Positions 9,720 to 27,773 of a stretch of DNA of 28,450 bases are shown one piece after another. Both the position numbers and the translations under genes were made by a program. Location: assembly GCA_039794085.1 (NCBI GenBank), contig JBDIWC010000049.1, positions 1 to 28,450 on the forward strand, read 5' to 3'. Source of the DNA: Gemmatimonadales bacterium (lineage in GTDB: Bacteria > Gemmatimonadota > Gemmatimonadetes > Gemmatimonadales > GWC2-71-9). The notes beneath the pieces are model-generated. The model searched no databases and had not been told where the DNA came from. It saw only the letters and a program-made list of their open reading frames with translations. Each line of letters starts with the position of its first letter. Position 1 is the first letter of the stretch.

Positions 9720-9777
9720 AGCGGTTCCAGAGCCTACGGTTTTTGACAGGGGCGCGTCCACCCGACAACCAACCATT

Positions 9778-10475
9778 GATCTCAGTGCGCAAGGCGTGGA
9801 GCGACGGGAATCATGCGGAGACCTCCGTGTCCTCCGCGGCCTCTGTGGTGACCCCTCCCCGCTCCCCGTCTCGGACGCCGGGCATCGGCATGATGGGGGC
9901 CCTTCCACCCCCCACACAAAGGCTCCTGATCTCGGCGCGCCAGGCGTGGAGCCGCGGGAATCATGCGGAGACCCTCCGTGTCCTCCGCGGCCTCTGTGGT
10001 GCCCCCCCCTACGTCACTCCGGATTGAACCACAGAGAACACGGAGGACGCAGAGGGTTGACGGCATCCACGAGGCGTTCCCAGTCTCGGTCCCCGGGCAT
10101 CGGCAGGACGGGGGCCCTTCCACCCCCCAGAAACAGAATCCGGATCTCGGCGCGCGAGACTTGGAGCCGCGGGAATCATGCGGAGACCCTCTGTGACCTC
10201 CGTGTTCTCTGCGGTGATTCCTTCCCGCCTTTCCCGATCCCATACCCCCGGGCATCGGCAGGATGGGGGCCCTTCCACCCCCCAAAAACAGAATCTGGAT
10301 CTCGGCGCGCAAGGCGTGGAACTGCGGGAATCATGCGGAGACCCTCCGTGTCCTCCGCGACCTCTGTGGTGACCCCCTCCCCACCCCAGAATGAACCGCA
10401 GAGAACACGGAGGACGCAGAGGGTTGTCGGTTCACACGACACCCTCCCCGTCTCGGAAGGCGGGGATCGGCATGA
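9778..10475. repeat. Modular non-coding tandem repeat, four units starting 9778, 9928, 10143, 10298
   Basis: ~73-bp module containing invariant GGGAATCATGCGGAGACC x4; CCGGGCATCGGCA..GGGGGCCCTTCCACCCCCCA x3; inverted half-module x2. Confidence 0.9.
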
Positions 10476-10563
10476 GGGCCGAGTGAAGCCACAGATGACA
10501 CGGAGGGTTCGGCCCACACCATCCGCGGAAAACGATGGAGGGCACATCCGCATGTCACCGGAT

Positions 10564-10641: not shown

Positions 10642-10670
10642 TTGACATACCCACCACTGTTTCGGATATT
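10642..10670 (+). promoter_or_regulatory. Candidate sigma70 promoter for the peptidase-cassette locus
   Basis: TTGACA-17 nt-GATATT, followed by GGAGGT RBS and ATG 10759. Confidence 0.55.
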
Positions 10671-10758
10671 GGTTAGGGTCAAGATCCCCTCGGCATCGCA
10701 CCGATCGGGCTCTTGATGGCAGTGGTCCGCCCGCCCGGGCGACAAATGGAGGTGTCAC

Positions 10759-12491
10759 ATGGGTTCCATCCCGCAGTCTCGCTCCGCATGGCTGGTTGGC
10801 ATGTGCCTTGCGGGGGGGGGTAAATTCTCTCCGGTTGTGACAGCAGCACCGTGAGTACTCCCTCCGAAGTGCAGCCGGTACCAACCACGACCTCCGCAAA
10901 TGTTGTCCAGGAGGGATTCGACATCCCGAGCAGTCCCCGGTACCACCTGAAGGTGGATGGATCCGGGTCGTTCCGGCCGGGTACCCCTGTCATCCTGACC
11001 GTTGATGTCGAGAGCATGAAGGGAACGGGTGCCACTGACCTCGAGCTGTATCTCCCTGAATTGACGGCATTTGAGGCCTCCCCTGCAACCTGGAGAGGTA
11101 TCCCCCGCGACACCCGGATGACCCCGGCCCAGAACCGGCAGATCGCGCTGAACCCGGGGTCGCGGTCCGGGCAACCGTTCACGGTGGTCTTTCCGGAGCC
11201 GGGGCTCTACACGGTCCAGGTGATTGCCCGCCAGCGCGCCCCCGATGCGGTGCGCGACTGGACCCCTCAATCGACCACGACCCACGCCTGGGTGCTCGTG
11301 CTGGAGGATGGGGGGCGGTTCTCCCCAGTGTATGACACGACGATGATTCTCCGCGACGCCATCAGCACGGGCCCCTTCCGCCATGTGGATCCGCAGCGTC
11401 AGGGGCCTCCCGTCAGTGGGGTCACCGCGTTCCGGGGTGGGGAGAACCAGTTTTGCGAAGTGAATTGCCCGCCCAGGGACTGCTGTTTCGGCGGGTCTCT
11501 GACGTATACGGATCCGGTTCTCAATCAGATTCTGCCCTTGGGGGGTGTCACGGTCCAGCTCAGCTTCGCCACCGGGGAACTCTTCCAGACGGTGGCGTCC
11601 ACCGGCGGGTACGGGGGGCTTCCCTGTCCCAACCCCGGTGAGACCGGCTTTCTGTCCTTTGTGACGATTTCATCCGCCTTCACCGTACGAGACCACGGTT
11701 CGGCCGGCACGACGTTCGCGAATGTGTCCTCGGCTGTCTGCGGCACCACCTACATGGCGCACAACACGGTGCTGGACGGCCCGCTGGTCTTTGCCCACAT
11801 GACCACGGCACGTAACAACGGGGGGAATCTCTTCGGCAAAGTCAGGGGCCCGCTCCCCGTGGACATCGAGACTCCGCCGTCTCCTGATGCACACAGCTTC
11901 TACTCCCCGTCTCAAGACCGGATCCATATCATGGATACGGAGGTGGACGAACAATTCGGGGGTTTTGTGGCTGCGCACGAGTACGGCCATGCCTTGCAGG
12001 CCACTGCCTTTGCCCATGGGGCACCGGGAATGGGGTCGTGCAACAATCCACACGATGTCGGTCTACCGAACACCATGGGATGTGCCGTTTCAGAGGGGTG
12101 GGCCGACTACTTCTCCATCAGTGTCATCCCGACCAATCTCTGGGATTTCGAATCGAATCCCTGGGTTCTGAACTTCCCGTTTCAAGGTGCCCAGATCGAG
12201 GGCGCGGTCGTGGGGTACTATCTGGACATGTCGGATCCCGCCAACGCGAGCGAAGCGGATGCGCTGAGTCTGGGAACGCGATTCGTCGCCGACATCATAT
12301 CGTCATGTGAGAATTGGGAAGGCGCTGGTGCGGCAACCATCGCTGAACTGCGTAACTGCTTCAATAACACTCTTACAACCGGATTTCAGCTCGTACCACC
12401 GGTGACCTTCCCTTCCGGGTGGACCCTGAGTGGAATGGAGCAGGACTATGATTGGAATATCCTCGGGTGTCGCGGTGCCTCCTGCTCCTAG
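10759..12491 (+). CDS. Putative Zn-metallopeptidase (gluzincin-like) lipoprotein; signal peptide frameshifted at 10812-10824, open frame 10824-12491
   Basis: AAHEYGHAL plus downstream SEGWADYF; Cys-rich body. RBS+ATG 10759 (MGSIPQSRSAWLVGMCLAGG) and lipobox ILSGC lie in different frames. Confidence 0.7.
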
Positions 12492-12909
12492 TCTGGCTTC
12501 ACTCGGTCGCGGCCTGATCTGTGCCGCTGGGGTCTTGGTCGCTTCCTGCGGGACCGAACCGGTTGACATCAATGCCATCGGGGCCACCATCTTTGGTGTG
12601 GTTTCCCGGGAGGGTGTCCCGGCGGTCGGGGTTGCGGTCCGCACGTCCTTGTTTCGGGAGCAGTGCCAGGAGCCTGTCCAGACCACGGCACCAGTTGTGA
12701 CGGACGGCATGGGCCGGTATCGCAAGGTCCTGGTGTTCGGACTCACTGCGCCGGGAACGCCGTTCTGCGTCGAAGTGCGGGTGGTGTTTGAGCGCGATCG
12801 AGTGGCAGACAGCGTGACGCTCAGCGGCATTCCGATCACGATGTCGGATTTCGTGGCCGTGGGCCAGCCGAGGGACAGTTTCCGGGTGGATATCGTGCTG
12901 CCACCGTGA
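12448..12909 (+). CDS. Cassette lipoprotein 1 (core type A), 153 aa, unknown function
   Basis: Lipobox LVASC, G-x-V..G-x-P-x2-GV and TDxxGRY beta-sandwich-like pattern; start overlaps peptidase 3' end by 44 nt (alternative GTG 12475). Confidence 0.8.
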   Translation: MIGISSGVAVPPAPSLASLGRGLICAAGVLVASCGTEPVDINAIGATIFGVVSREGVPAVGVAVRTSLFREQCQEPVQTTAPVVTDGMGRYRKVLVFGLTAPGTPFCVEVRVVFERDRVADSVTLSGIPITMSDFVAVGQPRDSFRVDIVLPP

Positions 12910-12912
12910 CAA

Positions 12913-13017
12913 TGGACAGTGAACAATGAACAGTGAACAATGAACAGTGAACAATGAACAATGAACAGTGAGCAATGAACAATGAACAATGAACAATGAA
13001 CAATGAACAATGAACAA
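12913..13017 (+). repeat. Heptamer tract (TGAACAR)15
   Basis: Units counted by hand; begins 4 nt after the stop codon. Confidence 0.95.
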
Positions 13018-13089
13018 TGAATGGTTGAGGCTGGAAAACTGCTTCGACCTTCGCTTCCGGGTGGACGCTGAGGGGAATGGAGCAGGATC

Positions 13090-13536
13090 ATGATTGGAAC
13101 ATGTTCGGGTGTCGCGGTGCCTTCTGCTTCTAGTCTGGCCTCGCTCGGTCGCGGCCTGATCTGTGGCGCGGTGGTTCTGGTCGCTTCCTGCGGTACTGAG
13201 CCAGGGGACATCTTCTCCATCGGGGCAACTGCCTTCGGGACGGTGTCCCGGAGCGGCCTTCCCGTAGCGGGCGTAGAGGTCCGCAGCACTCTGTTTCGGC
13301 AGGAATGCGTGGAACGGGTTCAAACCACTTCGCCCGACACTACGGACGACCAAGGCAGGTACCGCAAGTTCCTCGTATTCGGACTCACTGCGCCGGGGAC
13401 GCCCTTCTGCGTCGAAGTGCGGGCGATGTTCGACCGGGGTGGCGTTCCAGACAGCGTGACCATCGGCGGTATCCCGATCACGATGTCGGACCAGCCGCGG
13501 GACAGCTTCCGGGTGGATATCGCGCTGCCGCCGTGA
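13090..13536 (+). CDS. Cassette lipoprotein 2 (core type B), 148 aa
   Basis: Paralog of cassette 1; lipobox LVASC; 5-aa in-frame deletion near the C-terminus (TMSD-QPRDSF). Confidence 0.8.
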   Translation: MIGTCSGVAVPSASSLASLGRGLICGAVVLVASCGTEPGDIFSIGATAFGTVSRSGLPVAGVEVRSTLFRQECVERVQTTSPDTTDDQGRYRKFLVFGLTAPGTPFCVEVRAMFDRGGVPDSVTIGGIPITMSDQPRDSFRVDIALPP

Positions 13537-13539
13537 CAA

Positions 13540-13672
13540 TGAACAGTGAACAATGAACAATGAACAGTGAACAATGAACAATGAACAGTGAACAATGAAC
13601 AATGAACAGTGAACAATGAACAATGAGCAGTGAACAATGAACAGGGAACAATGAACAGGGAACAATGAACAG
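13540..13672 (+). repeat. Heptamer tract (KGAACAR)19
   Basis: Units counted by hand. Confidence 0.95.
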
Positions 13673-13757
13673 GGAAATGAACGGATAGATGAGGCTGGGA
13701 TGGGTTGCGATCTTCCCTTCCGGGTGAACGCTGCGGGGAATGGAGCAGGATTATTAT

Positions 13758-14216
13758 ATGAGTGGAACATTCTCGCGTGTCGCGGTGCCTTCTGCATGTA
13801 GCCTGGTTTCCTTCGGCCGAGGCCTGATCTGCGCGGCAGGGGTCCTCGTCGCTTCCTGCGGGACAGAACCGGGGGATATCACCAGTGTCGGCGCGGTCGT
13901 TTTTGGGCGCGTCTCCCGGGAGGGTATGGCCGTGCCGGGCGTGGAGATTCGTTCCTTTGCGTTCCCGCGGTGTGCTGATCCGACGGGACCCCGGCAGCCT
14001 GTCCTGACGGATTCTCTGGGCCACTACCGCGATCTGCTGACGACAGTGCTGACCGCCCCCGGTACACCGTTTTGTGTCGTTCTCCGTGCCGTGTTTGTCC
14101 GCGATGGGATCACCGACAGCGTGACCATCAGCGGGGTCCCGATCACGATGTCGGAATTTGTTGGCCCGAACCAACCGGCGGACAGTTTTCGGGTGGATAT
14201 CGCACTGCCACCGTGA
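13758..14216 (+). CDS. Cassette lipoprotein 3 (core type C, most divergent), 152 aa
   Basis: Lipobox LVASC, LTAPGTPFCV and DSFRVDIALPP conserved; alternative in-frame ATG 13740. Confidence 0.8.
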   Translation: MSGTFSRVAVPSACSLVSFGRGLICAAGVLVASCGTEPGDITSVGAVVFGRVSREGMAVPGVEIRSFAFPRCADPTGPRQPVLTDSLGHYRDLLTTVLTAPGTPFCVVLRAVFVRDGITDSVTISGVPITMSEFVGPNQPADSFRVDIALPP

Positions 14217-14219
14217 CAG

Positions 14220-14310
14220 TGGACAGTGAACAATGAACAGTGAACAATGAACAGGGAACAATGAACAGGGAACAATGAACAGGGAACAATGAACAGGGAA
14301 CAATGAACAG
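14220..14310 (+). repeat. Heptamer tract (KGAACAR)13
   Basis: Units counted by hand. Confidence 0.95.
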
Positions 14311-14389
14311 GGAATGAACGAATAGATGAGGCTGGGAACTGTTGCGACCTTCCCTTCCGGGTGGACCCTGAGTGGAATGGAGCAGGATC

Positions 14390-14851
14390 ATGATTGGAAC
14401 ATGTTCGGGTGTCGCGGTGCCTTCTGCAGGTAGCCTGGCCTCCTTTGGCCGAGGCCTGATCTGTGGCGCGGTGATTCTGTCCGTTTCCTGCGGGACAGAG
14501 CCAAGGGATATCAACACCATCGGGGCCACCATCTTTGGCGTTGTTTCCCGGGAGGGTGTCCAGGTAGCTGGAGTCTCGGTCCGCACGTCCTTGTTCCGGG
14601 AGCAGTGCCAGGAGCCTGTCTAGACCACGACACCAGTAGTGACGGATGGCATGGGTCAGTATCGCAAGGTCCTGGTATTCGGACTCACTGCGCCGGGAAC
14701 GCCGTTCTGCGTTGGGGTGCGTGCAGTGTTCGATCGCGACGGGGTCGCCGACAGTGTGACCATCAGCGGGATCCCGATCACGATGTCGGAGTTTGTGGCC
14801 GTGGGCCAGCCGCGGGACAGCTTCCGGGTGGACATCGAGTTGCCGCCGTGA
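14390..14851 (+). pseudogene. Cassette lipoprotein 4 (core type A) interrupted by in-frame TAG at 14621-14623
   Basis: Cassette 1 has CAG (Gln) at the same codon; the frame continues unshifted to 14851. Confidence 0.85.
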
Positions 14852-14854
14852 CAG

Positions 14855-14966
14855 TGGACAGTGAACAATGAACAATGAACAGTGAACAATGAACAATGAA
14901 CAGTGAACAATGAACAATGAGCAGTGAACAATGAACAGGGAACAATGAACAGGGAACAATGAACAG
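14855..14966 (+). repeat. Heptamer tract (KGAACAR)16
   Basis: Units counted by hand. Confidence 0.95.
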
Positions 14967-15045
14967 GGAATGAACGAATAGATGAGGCTGGGAACTGTTG
15001 CGACCTTCCCTTCCGGGTGGACCCTGAGTGGAATGGAGCAGGATC

Positions 15046-15507
15046 ATGATTGGAACATGTTCGGGTGTCGCGGTGCCTTCTGCAGGTAGCCTGGCCTCCT
15101 TTGGCCGAGGCCTGATCTGTGCCGCGGTGGTTCTGGTGGCTTCCTGCAGCACCGAGCCAGGGGACATCTTCTCCATCGGGGCAACTGTCTTCGGGACGGT
15201 GTCCCGGAGCGGTCTTCCCGTAGCGGGCGTAGAGGTCCGCAGCACTCTGTTTCGGCCGGAATGCGTGGAACGGGTTCAGGCCACTTCGCCCGACACTACG
15301 GACGACCAAGGCAGGTACCGCAAGGTGATGGTATTCGGGTTGACTGCGCCGGGAACGCCATTCTGCGTCGAAGTGCGGGCGGTGTTTGAGCGCGATGGAG
15401 TGGCAGACAGCGTGACCATCAGCGACATCCCCATCACGATGTCAGGGTTCGCCGGCCCGAACCAGCCGGCGGACAGTTTTCGGGTGGATATCGCGCTGCC
15501 GCCGTGA
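15046..15507 (+). CDS. Cassette lipoprotein 5 (core type B with type-C tail), 153 aa
   Basis: Lipobox LVASC; core nearly identical to cassette 2, tail GPNQPADSF as in cassette 3; no heptamer tract follows. Confidence 0.8.
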   Translation: MIGTCSGVAVPSAGSLASFGRGLICAAVVLVASCSTEPGDIFSIGATVFGTVSRSGLPVAGVEVRSTLFRPECVERVQATSPDTTDDQGRYRKVMVFGLTAPGTPFCVEVRAVFERDGVADSVTISDIPITMSGFAGPNQPADSFRVDIALPP

Positions 15508-15590
15508 TCGCATCTCCGGGTTGAAGACCGGGTCCCCGGAGCCTGCGGCGCCGGGTTCTGACAGACACTGGTTCCCGTACACAGAGTCGC

Positions 15591-15670
15591 TGTGGGTGCG
15601 CCGCTTGCGGCGCACCCGGGAGCAGGCGGGACTGGACTCGCGACGGTGCGCCGCAAGCGGCGCACCCACA
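15591..15670. repeat. REPIN-like inverted doublet of GGTGCGCCGC-(TT/AA)-GCGGCGCACC hairpins
   Basis: 15591-15616 is the exact reverse complement of 15645-15670, and each arm is itself a hairpin. Confidence 0.85.
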
Positions 15671-15789
15671 GGACACAGAGGCTGGCCTGCCGCTCCGCGG
15701 GGCCCGCCTTCCTTACCCAGATCCCTCGTTTCACTCGGGATGACGCTCCGATGGCGGAGTGGGTCTCGACCTCCTCGCCTCCGCGTGAG

Positions 15790-19771: not shown

Positions 19772-19839
19772 CGGCCAATCATCTCCGGACCGGGGCGTGG
19801 GGTCAAGTCGTGGTCACCGGACTCCGGAGCTGCGCGCGG

Positions 19840-22758
19840 ATGAGCACCCGGATCGCCAACGGCCCCACGGCGGCTCAGGCCCGGGCGATCACCGCGCCTC
19901 CGGGTCCCCTGCTGGTCGTGGCGGGTCCCGGAGCCGGAAAGACCTTTTGCCTGATCGAGCGCATCCGCCACCTGATCCTCGAGCGGGGAATCCCGGCGGA
20001 CCGCATTTGTGCCGTGACCTACACCAACAAGGCCGCCGGCGAAATCGCCCTGCGCCTCGACGAGACGATGCCCGGGGTCTCGGCCCAGGTGCGTCGCGGA
20101 ACGGTCCATTCGGTGGCGGTCGAGATTCTGCGGGCCTGGCCCGTGGAGGCGGGTCTCGACGCCGGGTTCGGGATCGCGGATGACGCGGCCCAGATGGCCA
20201 TTCTCGACCGAATGGGGTACCACGGGAGACGGGGTCGGGCCCTCCTCGGCGCCTTCGGCCGGCATCGTCTCCGCGGCGACGACCTGGACCCCGAGGATGT
20301 TCCGGTGCTCCAGGGATATCTGTCGAGGCTGGTGCGCGGGAACCTGGTGGATTTCGACGGCATCCTGGTGCGGATGGCGGCCCTGCTCGACGAGCATCCC
20401 GGATTGGCGGAGCGGATCGCCGCCCGGTGGGACGCGATCCTGGTCGATGAGTTCCAGGATGTGAACCGTCTCCAGTACCGCATCCTGAAGCACCTGGCTC
20501 CGCACCGGCATCTCTTCGCGGTGGGTGACGATGATCAATCGATCTTTTCCTGGACCGGGGCCGATCCCGATGTGCTGACCCGCTTCCAGCGGGACTTCGG
20601 CGTGGCCGCGCCGATCATTCTCGATCGGAACCATCGGTCGAGCGTCGCGATCTTCGATCGGGCGCGCGCTCTGGTGCAGCGCAATCCCTCCCTTTTCGAC
20701 AAGGACCTGGAGGCCACGCGCGAGTCGCCTCACCCCGTGGTGGCGCTTCGTTTCCCCACCGAAAGGGACGAGGCGGCGTGGATCCTGGGGGACCTTGCCG
20801 CGGCCCGAACCCGGAATCCGTCGCTTCGCTGGGGTGACTCCGCCATTCTGTACCGGATGCACACCATCGGTGCCTTCCTCGAACGGGAACTCCTCGGGGC
20901 CGGCATCCCCTGCCGCATGGCGCGGGGCCAGGCCCTGGGGGACGACCCGATCATCGCGGTGATCCTCCGATCCCTGCGGGTCATGGGGGCGCCCGGGGAC
21001 CCCGGCGCACTCGAGGCGCTGGCTCACGCGATGTTGCCTCACGATCTCCTTCAGGAGGCGGGCCTCGCCGAGTCACCCGACCTGGTGGCCGCGCTTCGGG
21101 CGCATGCGGCGAGCCTGCCCCGAGAGGCGCCTCACCGGAGACCGGCCTGGCGCTTCGTCTATTTCGTGGAGAATCTGCGCGGCCTCCTGCGCACGGCCGG
21201 ATCGATCCGCGACGTGGTGCGGGATCTCCTCGGGCAGAACCTGGGGAAAGCGCAGGGACCGCTCGACCGTCACGCCCCCGAACTCTCCGATCCCGCCGGG
21301 TATCCCGGCGCGTCCGCCCTGGCGATCCGCCTGCGGGAGGCGAGTCTCCGGGGGAGGACCATCTGGATCGAGCCCGACCGGGGGATCGAGGCGGGTCTCC
21401 GCGCCATGCTCCACGCCCCCGACTCCGGTTACCGGCCGATGACCCTCACGCCCGAAAGCCAGCCCGACCCTGAGGACGTGGTCCTCGCCCGCGGCGATGT
21501 GGCCGACGGCGGGTGGCCGGTCCTGTTGTTCAAGGCGCTCCAGCTCGCGAGCACAGTCGAGGAGGGGTTGGGAGAGGGTGGGTACGTCACCTTCGATCTG
21601 GAAACCACCGATCTCGACATTGCGACCTGCGAAACGATCGAGATCGGGGCCGCGCGGGTGCGGCACGGACAGGTGGTGGACCGGTTTCACACGCTGGTCC
21701 GCCCCGGGGGACCGGTTTCCGAGGGGGCCACCCGGGTGCACGGGTATCGGGAGGAGCACCTGCGCGATGCTCCGCCCTTTGCCGAGGCGTGGGAGCGGTT
21801 CCGGGCTTTTGTTGGTGACGATCTGGTGGTGGCTCACAACGGGCAGGACTTCGACATTCCGGTCCTGAAACGCCAGGCGGCACCCCATGGCGGTACCGGC
21901 ACCATGGCCTTTCTCGACACCCTTCCGCTGGCCCGCGCGGTGGTGCAGGGGAGTGCGAAGCTGGAGCACCTGGCCCGCCGGTACGGGGTCGACACCGGCA
22001 CGAGCCACCACGCCCTCGACGATGCGGTCTGCCTCGCGGGCGTGTACGAGGGGCTCACGCGCGACCGCGCGCGCCGGAATCGCACCGTGGCCCTTCCTCA
22101 ACTCCTCGGGCCTCTCGGGCTCGCGCTCGCCCTGGCCAGCGCCGGCCCCGCCGACCCGGAAAAGGTGCTGCTGCGCCGGATCACGCGGGCCGCGGCTCTC
22201 GGGCCCTGGAGCCAGATGCTGGAATATTACGCGTCCTGGCGGGATCGGGAGGGGACTCCCGAGGCTCCGACCCTGCAGGTCGTGATCGAGAGGTTGGGAG
22301 GGCATCGGCTCCTGGAGAGGATCCGGGCGGAGAGGCGGCCGGAGGATCGCCATCCCGCCGCCCTGGCCCGGCTGGAGAGTCTGCTGGCACTGGTGGAGCA
22401 CCTGCCCCTGGCCGAGGCAATTCCCGAGTTGCTGGATCGCGCCGCACTGTCCACGTCGGACAGCATCGAAGCCGACCCCGACCGGGTCAACCTGCTCACC
22501 CTGCATGCCACGAAGGGATTGGAGTTTTCCACGGTCTACATCGCCGGGGTCGAGGATCTGACCATCCCCGGCGCCCGTACACTGCGGGACGCACGGGCCG
22601 CGGAGCTGCCGGAGGCACGGAGGCTCCTCTATGTCGGCATGACCCGGGCCCGGGATCGGCTGGTTCTGACCCGCACTGAAACGCGCAACGGGGAACCGGG
22701 AGGGGGGAACCTCTTTCTGGACGAGATGGGTCTCGACCCTCAGTGGGTCATGCCGTAG
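19840..22758 (+). CDS. UvrD/PcrA-family SF1A helicase with inserted DEDDh 3'-5' exonuclease domain
   Basis: AGPGAGKT, TYTNKAA, VDEFQD, VGDDDQSIF, NHRS, TLHATKGLEF, YVGMTRAR; internal FDLETT, AHNGQDFD, HHALDD. Confidence 0.9.
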   Translation: MSTRIANGPTAAQARAITAPPGPLLVVAGPGAGKTFCLIERIRHLILERGIPADRICAVTYTNKAAGEIALRLDETMPGVSAQVRRGTVHSVAVEILRAWPVEAGLDAGFGIADDAAQMAILDRMGYHGRRGRALLGAFGRHRLRGDDLDPEDVPVLQGYLSRLVRGNLVDFDGILVRMAALLDEHPGLAERIAARWDAILVDEFQDVNRLQYRILKHLAPHRHLFAVGDDDQSIFSWTGADPDVLTRFQRDFGVAAPIILDRNHRSSVAIFDRARALVQRNPSLFDKDLEATRESPHPVVALRFPTERDEAAWILGDLAAARTRNPSLRWGDSAILYRMHTIGAFLERELLGAGIPCRMARGQALGDDPIIAVILRSLRVMGAPGDPGALEALAHAMLPHDLLQEAGLAESPDLVAALRAHAASLPREAPHRRPAWRFVYFVENLRGLLRTAGSIRDVVRDLLGQNLGKAQGPLDRHAPELSDPAGYPGASALAIRLREASLRGRTIWIEPDRGIEAGLRAMLHAPDSGYRPMTLTPESQPDPEDVVLARGDVADGGWPVLLFKALQLASTVEEGLGEGGYVTFDLETTDLDIATCETIEIGAARVRHGQVVDRFHTLVRPGGPVSEGATRVHGYREEHLRDAPPFAEAWERFRAFVGDDLVVAHNGQDFDIPVLKRQAAPHGGTGTMAFLDTLPLARAVVQGSAKLEHLARRYGVDTGTSHHALDDAVCLAGVYEGLTRDRARRNRTVALPQLLGPLGLALALASAGPADPEKVLLRRITRAAALGPWSQMLEYYASWRDREGTPEAPTLQVVIERLGGHRLLERIRAERRPEDRHPAALARLESLLALVEHLPLAEAIPELLDRAALSTSDSIEADPDRVNLLTLHATKGLEFSTVYIAGVEDLTIPGARTLRDARAAELPEARRLLYVGMTRARDRLVLTRTETRNGEPGGGNLFLDEMGLDPQWVMP

Positions 22759-24371: not shown

Positions 24372-25190
24372 TCAACCGGTCTTCCGCCGTTCGGTGGTGT
24401 CGTCCGGGGGGGAGGGGGACTGGCCGAGACTGGCCCGGAGTGCCTCCATGAGGTCGAGAATCCGGGCTCCCGACGCCTCCTCGGTGGGCTGGGTGGTGAT
24501 CTCCTCCCCGTCGACCTTGCGTTGTATTGCCGCCATGACCCGTTCGCGGACCTCGTCCCGGAAGCGCTCCGGATGGAACTCGTCGGTGGCGGTCTGCTGG
24601 ATCAGTTGGCGGGCCAGCTCGAGCTCGGCCGGCTTGACCGGGGTGTCCCCCACGGGAACCTCGCTGGGGGGACGGAGTTCGTCGGCATAGTGAAGCTGTT
24701 CCATCACCAGAAGGTGGTCCAGGGGGCGGATGAGTGCCAGGTACTGGTTGCCCCGGGCGGCATACTGTCCGAGGGCCGCGCGCCCGGTGTCCCGAAGGGC
24801 CTCGGCGAGGAGGCGATAGGCGCGCTCCCCCCCCTTGTCGGGGCCGAGGTAGAAGGTCTTGTTCACATAGGACCGCTCGACCGAGTCCAACGGGACGAAC
24901 TCGGCGATGTCGATGCTGTTGGTGGCGGTTTCGTCGAGCGTCTTGAGTTCCTCGGGGGTAAACTGTACATACTTCCCCTTGGCGAACTCGTACCCCTTGA
25001 CCATCTCGTCCCGGGGGACGGTGGCCCCGTCGGCCGGGCAGATGTACTGCTGCTTGAGGCGGGATCCGCACGCCTTGTGGAGCAGGTTGAAGGAGATGGA
25101 CGCGGCCGACTCGCTCGAGGAAAAGAGCTTGACCGGGACCGACACCAGTCCAAAGGAGATCGTGGCAGAGCCGATGACGCGCGCACCCAT
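24372..25190 (-). CDS. ku: NHEJ DNA end-binding protein Ku
   Basis: ISFGLVSVPVKLF, VKGYE, FYLGP, DLMEALRASL. Confidence 0.96.
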   Translation of the reverse strand: MGARVIGSATISFGLVSVPVKLFSSSESAASISFNLLHKACGSRLKQQYICPADGATVPRDEMVKGYEFAKGKYVQFTPEELKTLDETATNSIDIAEFVPLDSVERSYVNKTFYLGPDKGGERAYRLLAEALRDTGRAALGQYAARGNQYLALIRPLDHLLVMEQLHYADELRPPSEVPVGDTPVKPAELELARQLIQQTATDEFHPERFRDEVRERVMAAIQRKVDGEEITTQPTEEASGARILDLMEALRASLGQSPSPPDDTTERRKTG

Positions 25191-25217: not shown

Positions 25218-27773
25218 ATGGGCGCAACCAGCCCGGGCGAGGGACCGGACCGCGGGAGTGGGGGTTCGGGAAGCGAGCGCCTCGGTCCGTATCGCGCCAA
25301 GCGATCGCTCGACCGGACCCCGGAGCCGGGAGGCGCCCCCCCGCGCCCCGGGGGGAGCCGGTACGTCTTTCACAAGCACGCCGCCCGGAATCTCCACTGG
25401 GATCTGCGCCTGGAATTCGAGGGGGTGCTGCTTTCCTGGGCCGTCCCGAAGGGCCCCTCCTACGATACCGCGGAGAAACGTCTCGCGGTTCATGTGGAGG
25501 ACCACCCGGTGGAATACGGGGACTTCGAGGGTCGCATCCCCGAGGGCAACTACGGTGCGGGGGCGGTCATCACCTGGGACGCCGGCACCTGGGTTCCGAT
25601 CGGGGATCCTGCCGAGGGACTCGTCTCCGGGAAACTCCTCTTCGAACTGCGGGGGCACAAGCTCCGGGGCCTCTGGACCCTGGTCAAGATCCGGAAAACC
25701 GAACGGGAATGGCTTCTGATCAAGGAACGAGACGACTGGGCGGCCTCAGCGGAGTCTCCCCGAGTGGTCCCCGAACAGTCGGTGAGGAGTGGCCTGCTGG
25801 TCGAGGAGTTGAAGGCGGGGGTCGATCCCGTCTCCCGTCTCCGCGATCGCCTCGCCGAACTCGGGGCCCCTCTTCTCACTCCCGGGGCCCCGCCTCCCCG
25901 TCCGATGCTTGCCGAACGCGCCGAGAGGCCCTTCACCCGCGACGGCTGGGTGTTCGAGCCCAAGCTTGACGGATACCGGATCCTTGCCCTGCGCGAGGGA
26001 GCGGTCACCCGGCTTCTCACCCGCAACGGCCGCGATGCGACGGCGGCCTTTCCGGAAGTTGCGCGCGCGGTCGAGGCGCTGCCCTATCCTGATCTTGTGC
26101 TCGATGGGGAGGTGGTCGCACTGGATGAGGCGGGTCGGCCGAGCTTCCAAGATCTGCAGCGGAGAGCGCAGTATCTGCGACCACACGACGGGACGCGGGG
26201 CGCCTCACTCTCCGCGGTGCGGTACTATGTCTTCGACCTGCTGACCCTGGCGGACCGGGACCTGCGACCGCTTCCCCTCCTCGCCCGCAAGGAGATCCTG
26301 CGCCGGGTTCTCCCTCCGGTGGGCCCCCTCGCGATGGTGGACCATTTCGACCGGGAGGGGGAACGGGTGTTCCGCGAGGTGGAACGTCTCGGGCTCGAGG
26401 GGCTCGTGGCGAAGCGCGCCGACGCGCCGTATCGGGAGGGGAGGTCCCCTGCGTGGCTCAAGATCCGGAGCGAGCGCACGGGAGATTTTGTGGTGGTCGG
26501 GTACACCGAGCCCAAGGGTTCCCGGGCCGGTTTCGGCGGGCTCCATCTGGCCACGCACGAGGGAGAGGGCGGGGCCTTGGTGTACTGCGGGAGTGTGGGC
26601 AGTGGTTTCGCAGAGGAGGATCTCACCGCCATACGCGCCCAGCTCGAGACCCTGCGAGAGGAGACCACGCCCTGTCGTGAGCCCCTCCCCGACGGAGTGG
26701 CGGGGACCTGGACCCGCCCGGTTCTGGTTTGTGAGGTCCGCTTTGTGGAATGGACCGATCAGGGGCAGCTGCGCCAGCCGGTGTTCCTCCGGTGGCGGGA
26801 CGACAAGGGACCGGAGGACTGCCTCCGTCACCTTCCGGAACCCGTGGCCGAGGATCCCCCGCTTCCCGAGAACGCTCCCGCCGTCCCCCACGAGGTTCAC
26901 CTCACCAATCTCGACAAGATCTTCTGGCCCGAGGAGGGATTTACCAAGCGGGACCTCATCGAGTACTACGAAGCGATCGCCCCCTGGATGCTGGTGTATC
27001 TCCGGGATCGTCCCGTCGTGCTGACCCGGTACCCCGACGGCATCACCGGACCCTCCTTCTTCCAGAAGGATGCTCCGGAGTATGCCCCGGAATGGCTCCG
27101 GCGGGAGACGATGTGGAGCGAACAGGCCGGGCGCGAGATCCGGTACTTCATCGCCGACGACGTGCCCTCTCTGCGGTACCTCGCCAACATGGCGGCCATC
27201 CCGCTCCACATCTGGGCCAGCCGCGCGGCTCAGCTGGAGCGCCCCGACTGGTGCGTTCTCGACCTGGACCCGAAGGAGGCGCCGTTCTCCTCCGTGGTCA
27301 CGGTGGCGCTGGCGGTTCATGCCCTGTGCGAGGACGTGGGGCTCCCCTCGTTCGTCAAGACGACCGGGTCAACGGGTCTGCACATCCTCCTTCCCCTGGG
27401 CCGGATGCTGACCCACGAGCAATCACGGAATCTGGGAGAGCTGCTGGCACGTGTGGTGGTGGGAACCTGTCCCGAACTGGCCACCGTGACCCGTATCATC
27501 GATCGCCGGGAGGGAAAGGTGTATGTGGATTACCTTCAGAACGGGCATGGCAAGCTCATGGTGTCGCCCTTCAGCGTGCGACCGGTGCCCGGGGCCCTGG
27601 TGTCAATGCCCCTCCGGTGGGAGGAGCTGGGGCCGGACCTCAATCTGCGGGACCACACGCTCCGGAACGCCGTCGAACGGATGGAGACGTGGGGAGAGGA
27701 TCCGATGGCGGGGGTTCTGACTGCCGTGCCCGATCTGCCGAATGTCCTGGCGCGGCTCGCCACCCGCCGCTGA
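25218..27773 (+). CDS. ligD: NHEJ DNA ligase D (phosphoesterase-ligase-polymerase)
   Basis: HAARNLHWDLRLE (PE), EPKLDGYR and EGLVAK (ligase), RYPDG, DLD, KTTGSTGLH, VDYLQN (Pol). Confidence 0.96.
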   Translation: MGATSPGEGPDRGSGGSGSERLGPYRAKRSLDRTPEPGGAPPRPGGSRYVFHKHAARNLHWDLRLEFEGVLLSWAVPKGPSYDTAEKRLAVHVEDHPVEYGDFEGRIPEGNYGAGAVITWDAGTWVPIGDPAEGLVSGKLLFELRGHKLRGLWTLVKIRKTEREWLLIKERDDWAASAESPRVVPEQSVRSGLLVEELKAGVDPVSRLRDRLAELGAPLLTPGAPPPRPMLAERAERPFTRDGWVFEPKLDGYRILALREGAVTRLLTRNGRDATAAFPEVARAVEALPYPDLVLDGEVVALDEAGRPSFQDLQRRAQYLRPHDGTRGASLSAVRYYVFDLLTLADRDLRPLPLLARKEILRRVLPPVGPLAMVDHFDREGERVFREVERLGLEGLVAKRADAPYREGRSPAWLKIRSERTGDFVVVGYTEPKGSRAGFGGLHLATHEGEGGALVYCGSVGSGFAEEDLTAIRAQLETLREETTPCREPLPDGVAGTWTRPVLVCEVRFVEWTDQGQLRQPVFLRWRDDKGPEDCLRHLPEPVAEDPPLPENAPAVPHEVHLTNLDKIFWPEEGFTKRDLIEYYEAIAPWMLVYLRDRPVVLTRYPDGITGPSFFQKDAPEYAPEWLRRETMWSEQAGREIRYFIADDVPSLRYLANMAAIPLHIWASRAAQLERPDWCVLDLDPKEAPFSSVVTVALAVHALCEDVGLPSFVKTTGSTGLHILLPLGRMLTHEQSRNLGELLARVVVGTCPELATVTRIIDRREGKVYVDYLQNGHGKLMVSPFSVRPVPGALVSMPLRWEELGPDLNLRDHTLRNAVERMETWGEDPMAGVLTAVPDLPNVLARLATRR

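Follow-up and report, generated by a model that had tools for sequence, protein, structure and literature searches.

The 28,450-nucleotide stretch of a Gemmatimonadales genome considered here (contig JBDIWC010000049.1, positions 1 to 28,450; hereafter the window) carries, at 10759..15507 on the + strand, a gene for a predicted lipid-anchored zinc metallopeptidase followed by five tandem paralogous lipoprotein genes. We give about an even chance to the reading that this locus encodes a protease with its cognate inhibitor, accompanied by orphan inhibitors of other alleles of the enzyme. Lipoprotein unit 1 would be the likely inhibitor, and the four extra variant copies would guard the envelope against related proteases of other strains. 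The protease, of mycolysin-like layout, would be produced as a zymogen anchored by lipid and would act outside the cytoplasm, possibly on neighbouring cells, and the overlapping downstream gene, probably coupled in its translation, would supply a surface protein that binds the protease, in this locus probably through a variable, cysteine-anchored loop. The function thus proposed is deduced from genomics alone; an inhibitor role would account for the adjacency and overlap of the two genes, the retention of partners after loss of the enzyme, the sharing of allele types, and the variation near the active site.

The adjacency was surveyed in 40 loci fetched around peptidase matches and in 18 further regions, 11 of these around partial peptidase matches. 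Loci were selected by the peptidase alone, and a partner was scored where a short open reading frame (ORF) with a hydrophobic N-terminus started between -75 and +120 nt from the peptidase 3' end. This was the case at 45 of 57 peptidase ends (with a lipobox at 38/57), as compared with 49 of 588 long genes of the window genome treated by the same rule (lipobox, 7/588), figures in which the 57 ends include related, non-independent loci and the control is one genome analysed with a crude gene rule. Two further loci beyond the threshold of this rule (L076 and L078) were excluded from the count. Clustering and inspection together placed a partner at 50 of the 57 ends and none at seven, and the linkage was seen across at least 12 genera. 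The window genome itself holds four more peptidase loci (contigs C80, C5, C43, and C24) with an Ig-like lipoprotein partner at each, and each of its ten partner-family genes comes immediately after a peptidase, a tail copy, or another unit. The adjacency of enzyme and small partner is therefore conserved, as in protease/inhibitor or toxin/immunity pairs.

The partners themselves are diverse. They form nine multi-member clusters with an hhalign probability below 2% for 35 of the 36 pairs, and since profile comparison joins only two clusters, both barrel-like, there are at least eight unrelated partner families; homology among the families was rejected on these values. The largest, with 19 members, is an unnamed lipoprotein family whose members are about 200 residues long and share a Cys/Trp motif conserved close to the C-terminus (L027, L054, L061, L066-L068, L070, and others), for which no Pfam match was found in six members scanned. 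It is followed by the window family (10 members), six outer-membrane barrels, one of which exceeds the Pfam cut-off, two families of five and two members that are Ig-like by inspection, and three pairs. A quick tree of the catalytic region, whose rows are related and non-independent, contains well-supported sister enzymes with different partner families (L054/L056, L063/L069, and L064/L065), and the partner label changes nine times on it, a number given without a shuffled-label baseline. The preliminary description of the window, which had been made from the DNA letters, had proposed a diversifying set of peptidase partners. The behaviour of the lipoproteins and the phylum-wide linkage bear this out, but a role of the window lipoprotein family as a dedicated partner is not supported.

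One-to-one overlap of the two genes and swapping of partners between sister enzymes are also what would be expected if the partner were a positive subunit. As an anchor, foldase, or specificity adaptor, it would keep the mature protease at the surface or guide it to its substrates, and a swap would change the target. A protease of mycolysin-like layout would, if processed by itself, lose its lipid anchor and could use such a holder. The partners are, however, under purifying selection after loss of the enzyme, which is unexpected for a helper of the cell's own enzyme, and we regard a positive subunit as quite unlikely.

This retention is the second line of evidence for inhibition. A recognisable partner follows 23 of the 24 peptidase ends that are partial and 27 of the 33 that are full-length; in the first survey, a partner stood behind seven of seven isolated tails, and a tail-only search of ten near-complete genomes, chosen for having matches, gave 26 matches, among them six new tails of which five had a partner. 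In L116 the partner was kept and the catalytic core deleted, and an orphan in G377 (L150), which consists of a 28-residue tail and a barrel, corresponds to the terminal part of a peptidase-barrel pair that is intact in G350 (L057). Extra units of tail plus partner follow the peptidases of L056, L062, L069, L077, L078, and contig C24 of the window genome. Because many partner starts overlap the peptidase end, the tail travels with the partner. A partner newly acquired or duplicated would bring along the final 25-70 protease codons, which would carry the start signals of the partner and offer homology for recombination, and the protease would often be lost while the partner stays. Because partners persist, and pile up when the protease breaks, they are likely to be inhibitors guarding the cell against its own and its neighbours' proteases. 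The module is accessory: G001 and G002 do not have it at this site, and elsewhere in G001 only a promoter and about 60 codons are retained. Just upstream of the module, at 9750-10480, lie several copies of a dispersed repeat of about 360 bp, which has dozens of matches in G001, one of them directly ahead of the DoxX flank where the module is absent.

The ATG at 10759, preceded by a strong ribosome-binding site (10748-10753), opens a reading frame that encodes the start of the signal peptide, ends at 10852 (10759..10854 including the stop codon), and never reaches the enzyme, because the window has 2 nt more than intact relatives in the G9/A3 run at 10812-10824. Lipobox and enzyme are located behind a TAA in a separate ORF (10824..12491), out of frame with the start codon of the gene. 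In relatives that are 2 nt shorter (P0004, L006, and X7/X8), the signal peptide is intact and in frame, and contigs from three runs of one sample (X1, X2, and X3), which may be the source sample, are identical to the window across the site, with 0 differences. The frameshift is thus a real allele; an assembly error was rejected in view of the exact contig matches, and the peptidase gene of the window, whose frameshift had been overlooked, is not intact. Phase variation at the G run is possible but unsupported: the relatives vary in length there, yet the window is altered in two runs. Among the five peptidase copies of the window genome, four are damaged (two by frameshifts, one by a deletion, and one by a His-to-Tyr exchange in the motif), whereas damage affects one of ten partner genes, an asymmetry due in part to the peptidase gene being about four times longer than the partner gene. 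As judged from these sequences, the enzyme is likely to be off in this strain, and the locus would therefore now be purely defensive.

The array behind the peptidase is real, and the ATGs (12448, 13090, 13758, 14390, and 15046), their spacings (642/668/632/656), the tails, the tract positions, and the conserved motifs of the preliminary description were all reproduced. Upstream of the peptidase, a candidate sigma-70-like promoter, TTGACA-17-GATATT, is located at 10642..10670 (consensus match 10/12). Unit 1 (12448..12909; centre type A), the predicted cognate partner, starts within the peptidase end. Unit 2 (13090..13536; type B), unit 3 (13758..14216; type C, nearest to P0016 and P0017 from other samples), unit 4 (14390..14851; type A), and unit 5 (15046..15507; type B) are each preceded by a copy of the peptidase 3' end of about 25-30 codons, at 13029..13130 (containing the start region of unit 2), 13713..13795, 14326..14430, and 14982..15086, respectively. 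A repeated tail before each of these units had been claimed, and it is present throughout, but the copy before unit 3 is broken. Likewise, all five lipoproteins are present, but unit 4 is a pseudogene with an in-frame TAG at 14621 that had been overlooked; X1 and X3 contigs cover this site with 0 differences. Four tracts of a heptamer, with 14-20 repeats each, separate the lipoprotein units (12909..13021, 13536..13676, 14216..14314, and 14851..14970), and none follows unit 5. Contigs specific for individual units match the window with 0 differences, and a relative known from different runs (X7/X8, which are probably a single data set) also has a junction of tract, tail, and unit, so that a misassembly, which the preliminary description had listed among the findings that would refute it, is not supported. 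As the whole array is spanned by no contig, the order of the units and the lengths of the tracts rest on the assembly. A perfect 27-bp inverted repeat is located 3' of the array (15590..15671; z -6.1 for 15500-15760), possibly a transcript end or a dispersed palindrome.

The five units are 148-153 residues long with 62-86% mutual identity, and all keep the lipobox, two further Cys, and the motifs LTAPGTPFCV and DSFRVDIxLPP; variability peaks around the first conserved Cys. Unit 1 is modelled as an all-beta protein (pLDDT 89.8), and its Foldseek matches are mostly transthyretin-like sandwiches, all of them weak (E 4e-4 to 8e-3), including hydroxyisourate hydrolase, intradiol dioxygenases, and the teneurin TTR domain; the lipoproteins are accordingly assigned a transthyretin-like beta-sandwich fold. 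In the centre (codons 34-98), dS is 1.2-1.8 between types but 0.42 and 0.13 within types A and B, and units 4 and 5 are identical across the tail and the first 60 nt. High divergence between types and low divergence within them, together with identical flanks, indicate that old central blocks have been shuffled between homogenised flanks. Pairwise dN/dS among the five units is 0.18-0.32, a centre dN/dS above 1 is absent, and synonymous divergence rises in the centre too, so that positive selection in the centre was rejected; what is seen is mosaic exchange under purifying selection, with no proof of positive selection. Types A and C were found again in other samples. We propose that, because the catalytic-domain alleles of the enzyme differ among strains, partner variants with other centres would be worth keeping.

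The fold of the partners bears also on the possibility that they are substrates, i.e. that the adjacent gene encodes a surface protein which the peptidase matures or sheds, and that loss of the enzyme leaves the proteins attached. The Pro-Pro endopeptidase PPEP, which acts on a neighbouring adhesin, provides the model. Both genes overlap and are predicted to encode exported proteins, transthyretin-like, Ig-like, and barrel folds are common in adhesins, and many partners have Pro-rich linkers after the lipobox. However, no cleavage-like motif is common to the partner families, integral barrels are poor candidates for shedding, and the variation is located in the folded centre rather than in the linker, so that a substrate role has in our opinion a slim prospect of being correct.

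Returning to inhibition, a third line of evidence is the variation of the lipoproteins described above and of the enzyme. For the enzyme, a 36-row profile collects 575 clusters (50% identity) at E values up to 1e-30. As had been described, an HExxH...EGWAD protein heads the array: the HEYGH motif is located at 11976-11990 and EGWAD 34 residues on, at 12093-12107. In 139 of 148 new top-scoring homologues, HExxH is followed 30-41 residues later by E[GA]xA, and H, E, H, and E are invariant in 36 of 36 aligned rows. The motifs thus place the protein among the gluzincin-type zinc metallopeptidases, with HExxH and a conserved downstream Glu as predicted third ligand. A lipobox is present in 101 of 118 N-complete homologues, and the protein would be a lipid-anchored zymogen; within 10824..12491, the codon of the lipobox Cys (10836) is followed by a predicted pro/Ig-like N-terminal part, a middle part, and the gluzincin-type catalytic domain, with limits deduced from the alignment and from structural neighbours in the Atlas. 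Pfam, NCBIfam, and PDB sequence searches with the peptidase and the lipoprotein gave nothing over the cut-offs (a DUF6795 match at E 0.1-0.2 was not counted), in agreement with the previous statement that neither family was recognised. The intact orthologue P0004 falls into an Atlas cluster with Gemmatimonadota as commonest phylum (score 0.98), and the nearest named structural neighbours of its low-confidence model (pLDDT 0.57) are mycolysin-like, with TM values of 0.47-0.49 by query and reaching 0.69 by target; the name PF29610 is attached to rows 2, 4, and 5 of the Atlas, with TM just under 0.5 by query to the same low-confidence model. Mycolysin (peptidase family M5) shares HExxH and the downstream Glu with the present family, but no match at the sequence level was found with the Pfam models and PDB sequences searched, and the present family is, unlike mycolysin, predicted to be lipid-anchored and is partner-linked. 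With a 9-row profile, and with only three candidates scored per genome, matches were obtained in 37 of 401 genomes belonging to the phylum, which is likely Gemmatimonadota, and no relative was found in two metagenome scans.

Three close orthologues share 75-79% identity in the catalytic part and 90-95% elsewhere (Fisher p 2e-10 to 2e-5), an excess of variation that is gone against the distant orthologue P0005 (62%; p 0.56-1). Contigs of soil and cave relatives have blocks replaced at 11821-11973 and 12053-12194, around the zinc motif, and other lipoprotein centres. Some members of the family (L045, L046, L047, L050, and L073) have C-terminal extensions of 100-280 residues, and in L050 a long ORF with repeated PKD-like units follows the peptidase in place of a small partner. 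In L119 and L120, an HExxH peptidase of a more distant type, extended at the C-terminus, matched the profile in the catalytic part only.

Several findings weigh against an inhibitor role. In addition to the limits given above for the linkage count, the damage asymmetry, the dN/dS values, and the catalytic-domain excess, no peptidase was found within 1.5 kb of any of 21 held-out homologues of the window lipoproteins, and this family occurs in arrays of two to four genes in peptidase-free islands, two of which also hold similar barrels. A role of the window family as a dedicated partner, as had been supposed, is therefore not supported, and the family is confined to the neighbourhood of the enzyme only inside the window genome, not among the held-out loci; homologues unlinked to the peptidase had been named beforehand as a finding that would speak against a partnership, and this has come about in part. 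Weak matches in 146 of 401 genomes were not counted as lipoproteins, as they include transthyretin-like domains inside ORFs of more than 1000 residues. At least eight unrelated partners for one enzyme family, with switches between sister enzymes, exceed what is known of such pairs, and we know of no precedent for small outer-membrane barrels as protease inhibitors. Finally, the sheath gene of type VI secretion systems (T6SS; TssC, PF05943) has no match in the window genome (G000), which is 94.7% complete. Delivery by a T6SS was rejected, and inspection of the ORFs of the window revealed no VgrG/PAAR-linked gene and no recombinase, in accordance with the earlier remark that the window contains no secretion machinery or recombinase. 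Two islands without peptidase (L123 in G268 and L124 in G420) comprise five to six matches to transthyretin-like lipoproteins, two small barrels, and other exported genes, and the island in G420 also a transposase-like and a methyltransferase-like gene.

The peptidase-free islands would fit orphan immunity islands and equally independent surface proteins. According to the latter explanation, the partners are variable adhesins, receptors, or decoys that collect in unstable, repeat-rich sites, the peptidase lends only promoter and start signals, and the array is an ordinary tandem duplication aided by the heptamers. That homologues are common without the peptidase, that the module is accessory and located beside a dispersed repeat, that heptamers occur genome-wide, and that positive selection was not seen all agree with it. 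It leaves unexplained, however, the adjacency of enzyme and partner across the genera surveyed, the overlapping starts, and the excess variation of the catalytic domain in close orthologues, and we consider it unlikely. The inhibitor reading could, conversely, be extended to a phylum-wide, T6SS-independent conflict system, in which lipid-anchored mycolysin-like proteases attack neighbours, immunity has repeatedly been recruited from surface scaffolds unrelated to one another, with integral outer-membrane beta-barrels among them as a novel class of protease inhibitors, and immunity genes travel from locus to locus and strain to strain with the last codons of the protease as their portable handle. 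We think it rather doubtful that this extension holds as a whole.

The system resembles three known arrangements, which provide precedents for the inhibitor reading, and is a member of none, since it differs in fold, gene order, and delivery. Potempins, lipoproteins that come in two folds, act as inhibitors (PMC9890683), and in the KLIKK-peptidase/potempin pairs of Tannerella forsythia a secreted peptidase gene likewise adjoins a small lipoprotein gene, with more than one lipoprotein fold. Potempin genes, however, lie upstream, one per peptidase of different families, the KLIKK peptidases use type IX secretion, and orphan arrays are not described in the sections consulted, whereas the present enzymes, all of one family, have partners of many folds downstream, and orphans occur frequently; potempins have an OB-fold or an eight-stranded barrel, and the window lipoprotein, encoded downstream, is predicted to be a transthyretin-like sandwich. 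PA0261 binds the metallopeptidase VgrG2b (PMC6899460), again a zinc metallopeptidase with an adjacent Cys-containing envelope partner that is often a lipoprotein, but VgrG2b is delivered by a T6SS, while the present enzyme has its own lipoprotein signal in a genome without detected TssC. Polyimmunity loci and Rhs/CDI orphan modules (PMC3482391, PMC10539506), like AID arrays, share with the window array tandem, same-strand, strain-variable paralogues and orphans that match pairs in use in other strains, and an orphan immunity gene has been shown to be protective (PMC10539506). In Rhs systems, however, the toxin C-terminus is swapped together with the immunity gene, whereas the piece retained here is the conserved last 25-70 residues, too short for an enzyme; moreover, no recombinase is present at the locus, and the partners match no Pfam immunity family at the thresholds used. 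Judged by the definition of a homogeneous polyimmunity locus (PMC3482391), the array is tandem, same-strand, and strain-variable, but its members match no recognised immunity family above the cut-offs, and peptidase tails lie between the units. Neither dedicated repeats nor, by inspection of the ORFs of the window, a recombinase, as expected of a phase-variable lipoprotein cassette array, were found, although mosaic exchange was. No description of this peptidase family was found in the literature covered, to which subscription papers and supplements did not belong; entries for these families may exist in the supplementary tables of PMC3482391.

For this large peptidase family no curated model exists. 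Should its partners inhibit it, they would provide at least eight new scaffolds of metallopeptidase inhibitors, possibly with membrane barrels among them. They would also allow the acquisition of unrelated inhibitors by a single enzyme fold to be tested in a natural setting, and the module would be a candidate antagonism system in a phylum for which the literature searched appears to contain no account of conflict between cells; each pair comprises just two short genes. If they do not inhibit, there would still be a conserved two-gene module with an unusual turnover of partners.

The heptamer tracts, which had been described as a part of the system, are spread genome-wide: 25 of the 29 tracts of at least three repeats lie outside the window, and a role as system-specific signals was rejected. 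The window genome is rich in short tandem repeats in general, with 288 perfect heptamer triplet sites of many unit types (ACATAGG 48, ACCGCCT 29, AACTTCG 19, and AACAATG 18). A weak promoter-like match (9/12) opens each tract of the array and points to the next unit (12913-12941, 13533-13561, 14220-14248, and 14848-14876), but may reflect only the repeat period. Elsewhere in the window, inspection of the translations revealed a UvrD-like helicase with an inserted exonuclease-like domain (19810-22758, + strand) and the divergent end-joining repair genes for a Ku-like protein (24372-25190, - strand) and a LigD-like protein (25218-27773, + strand).

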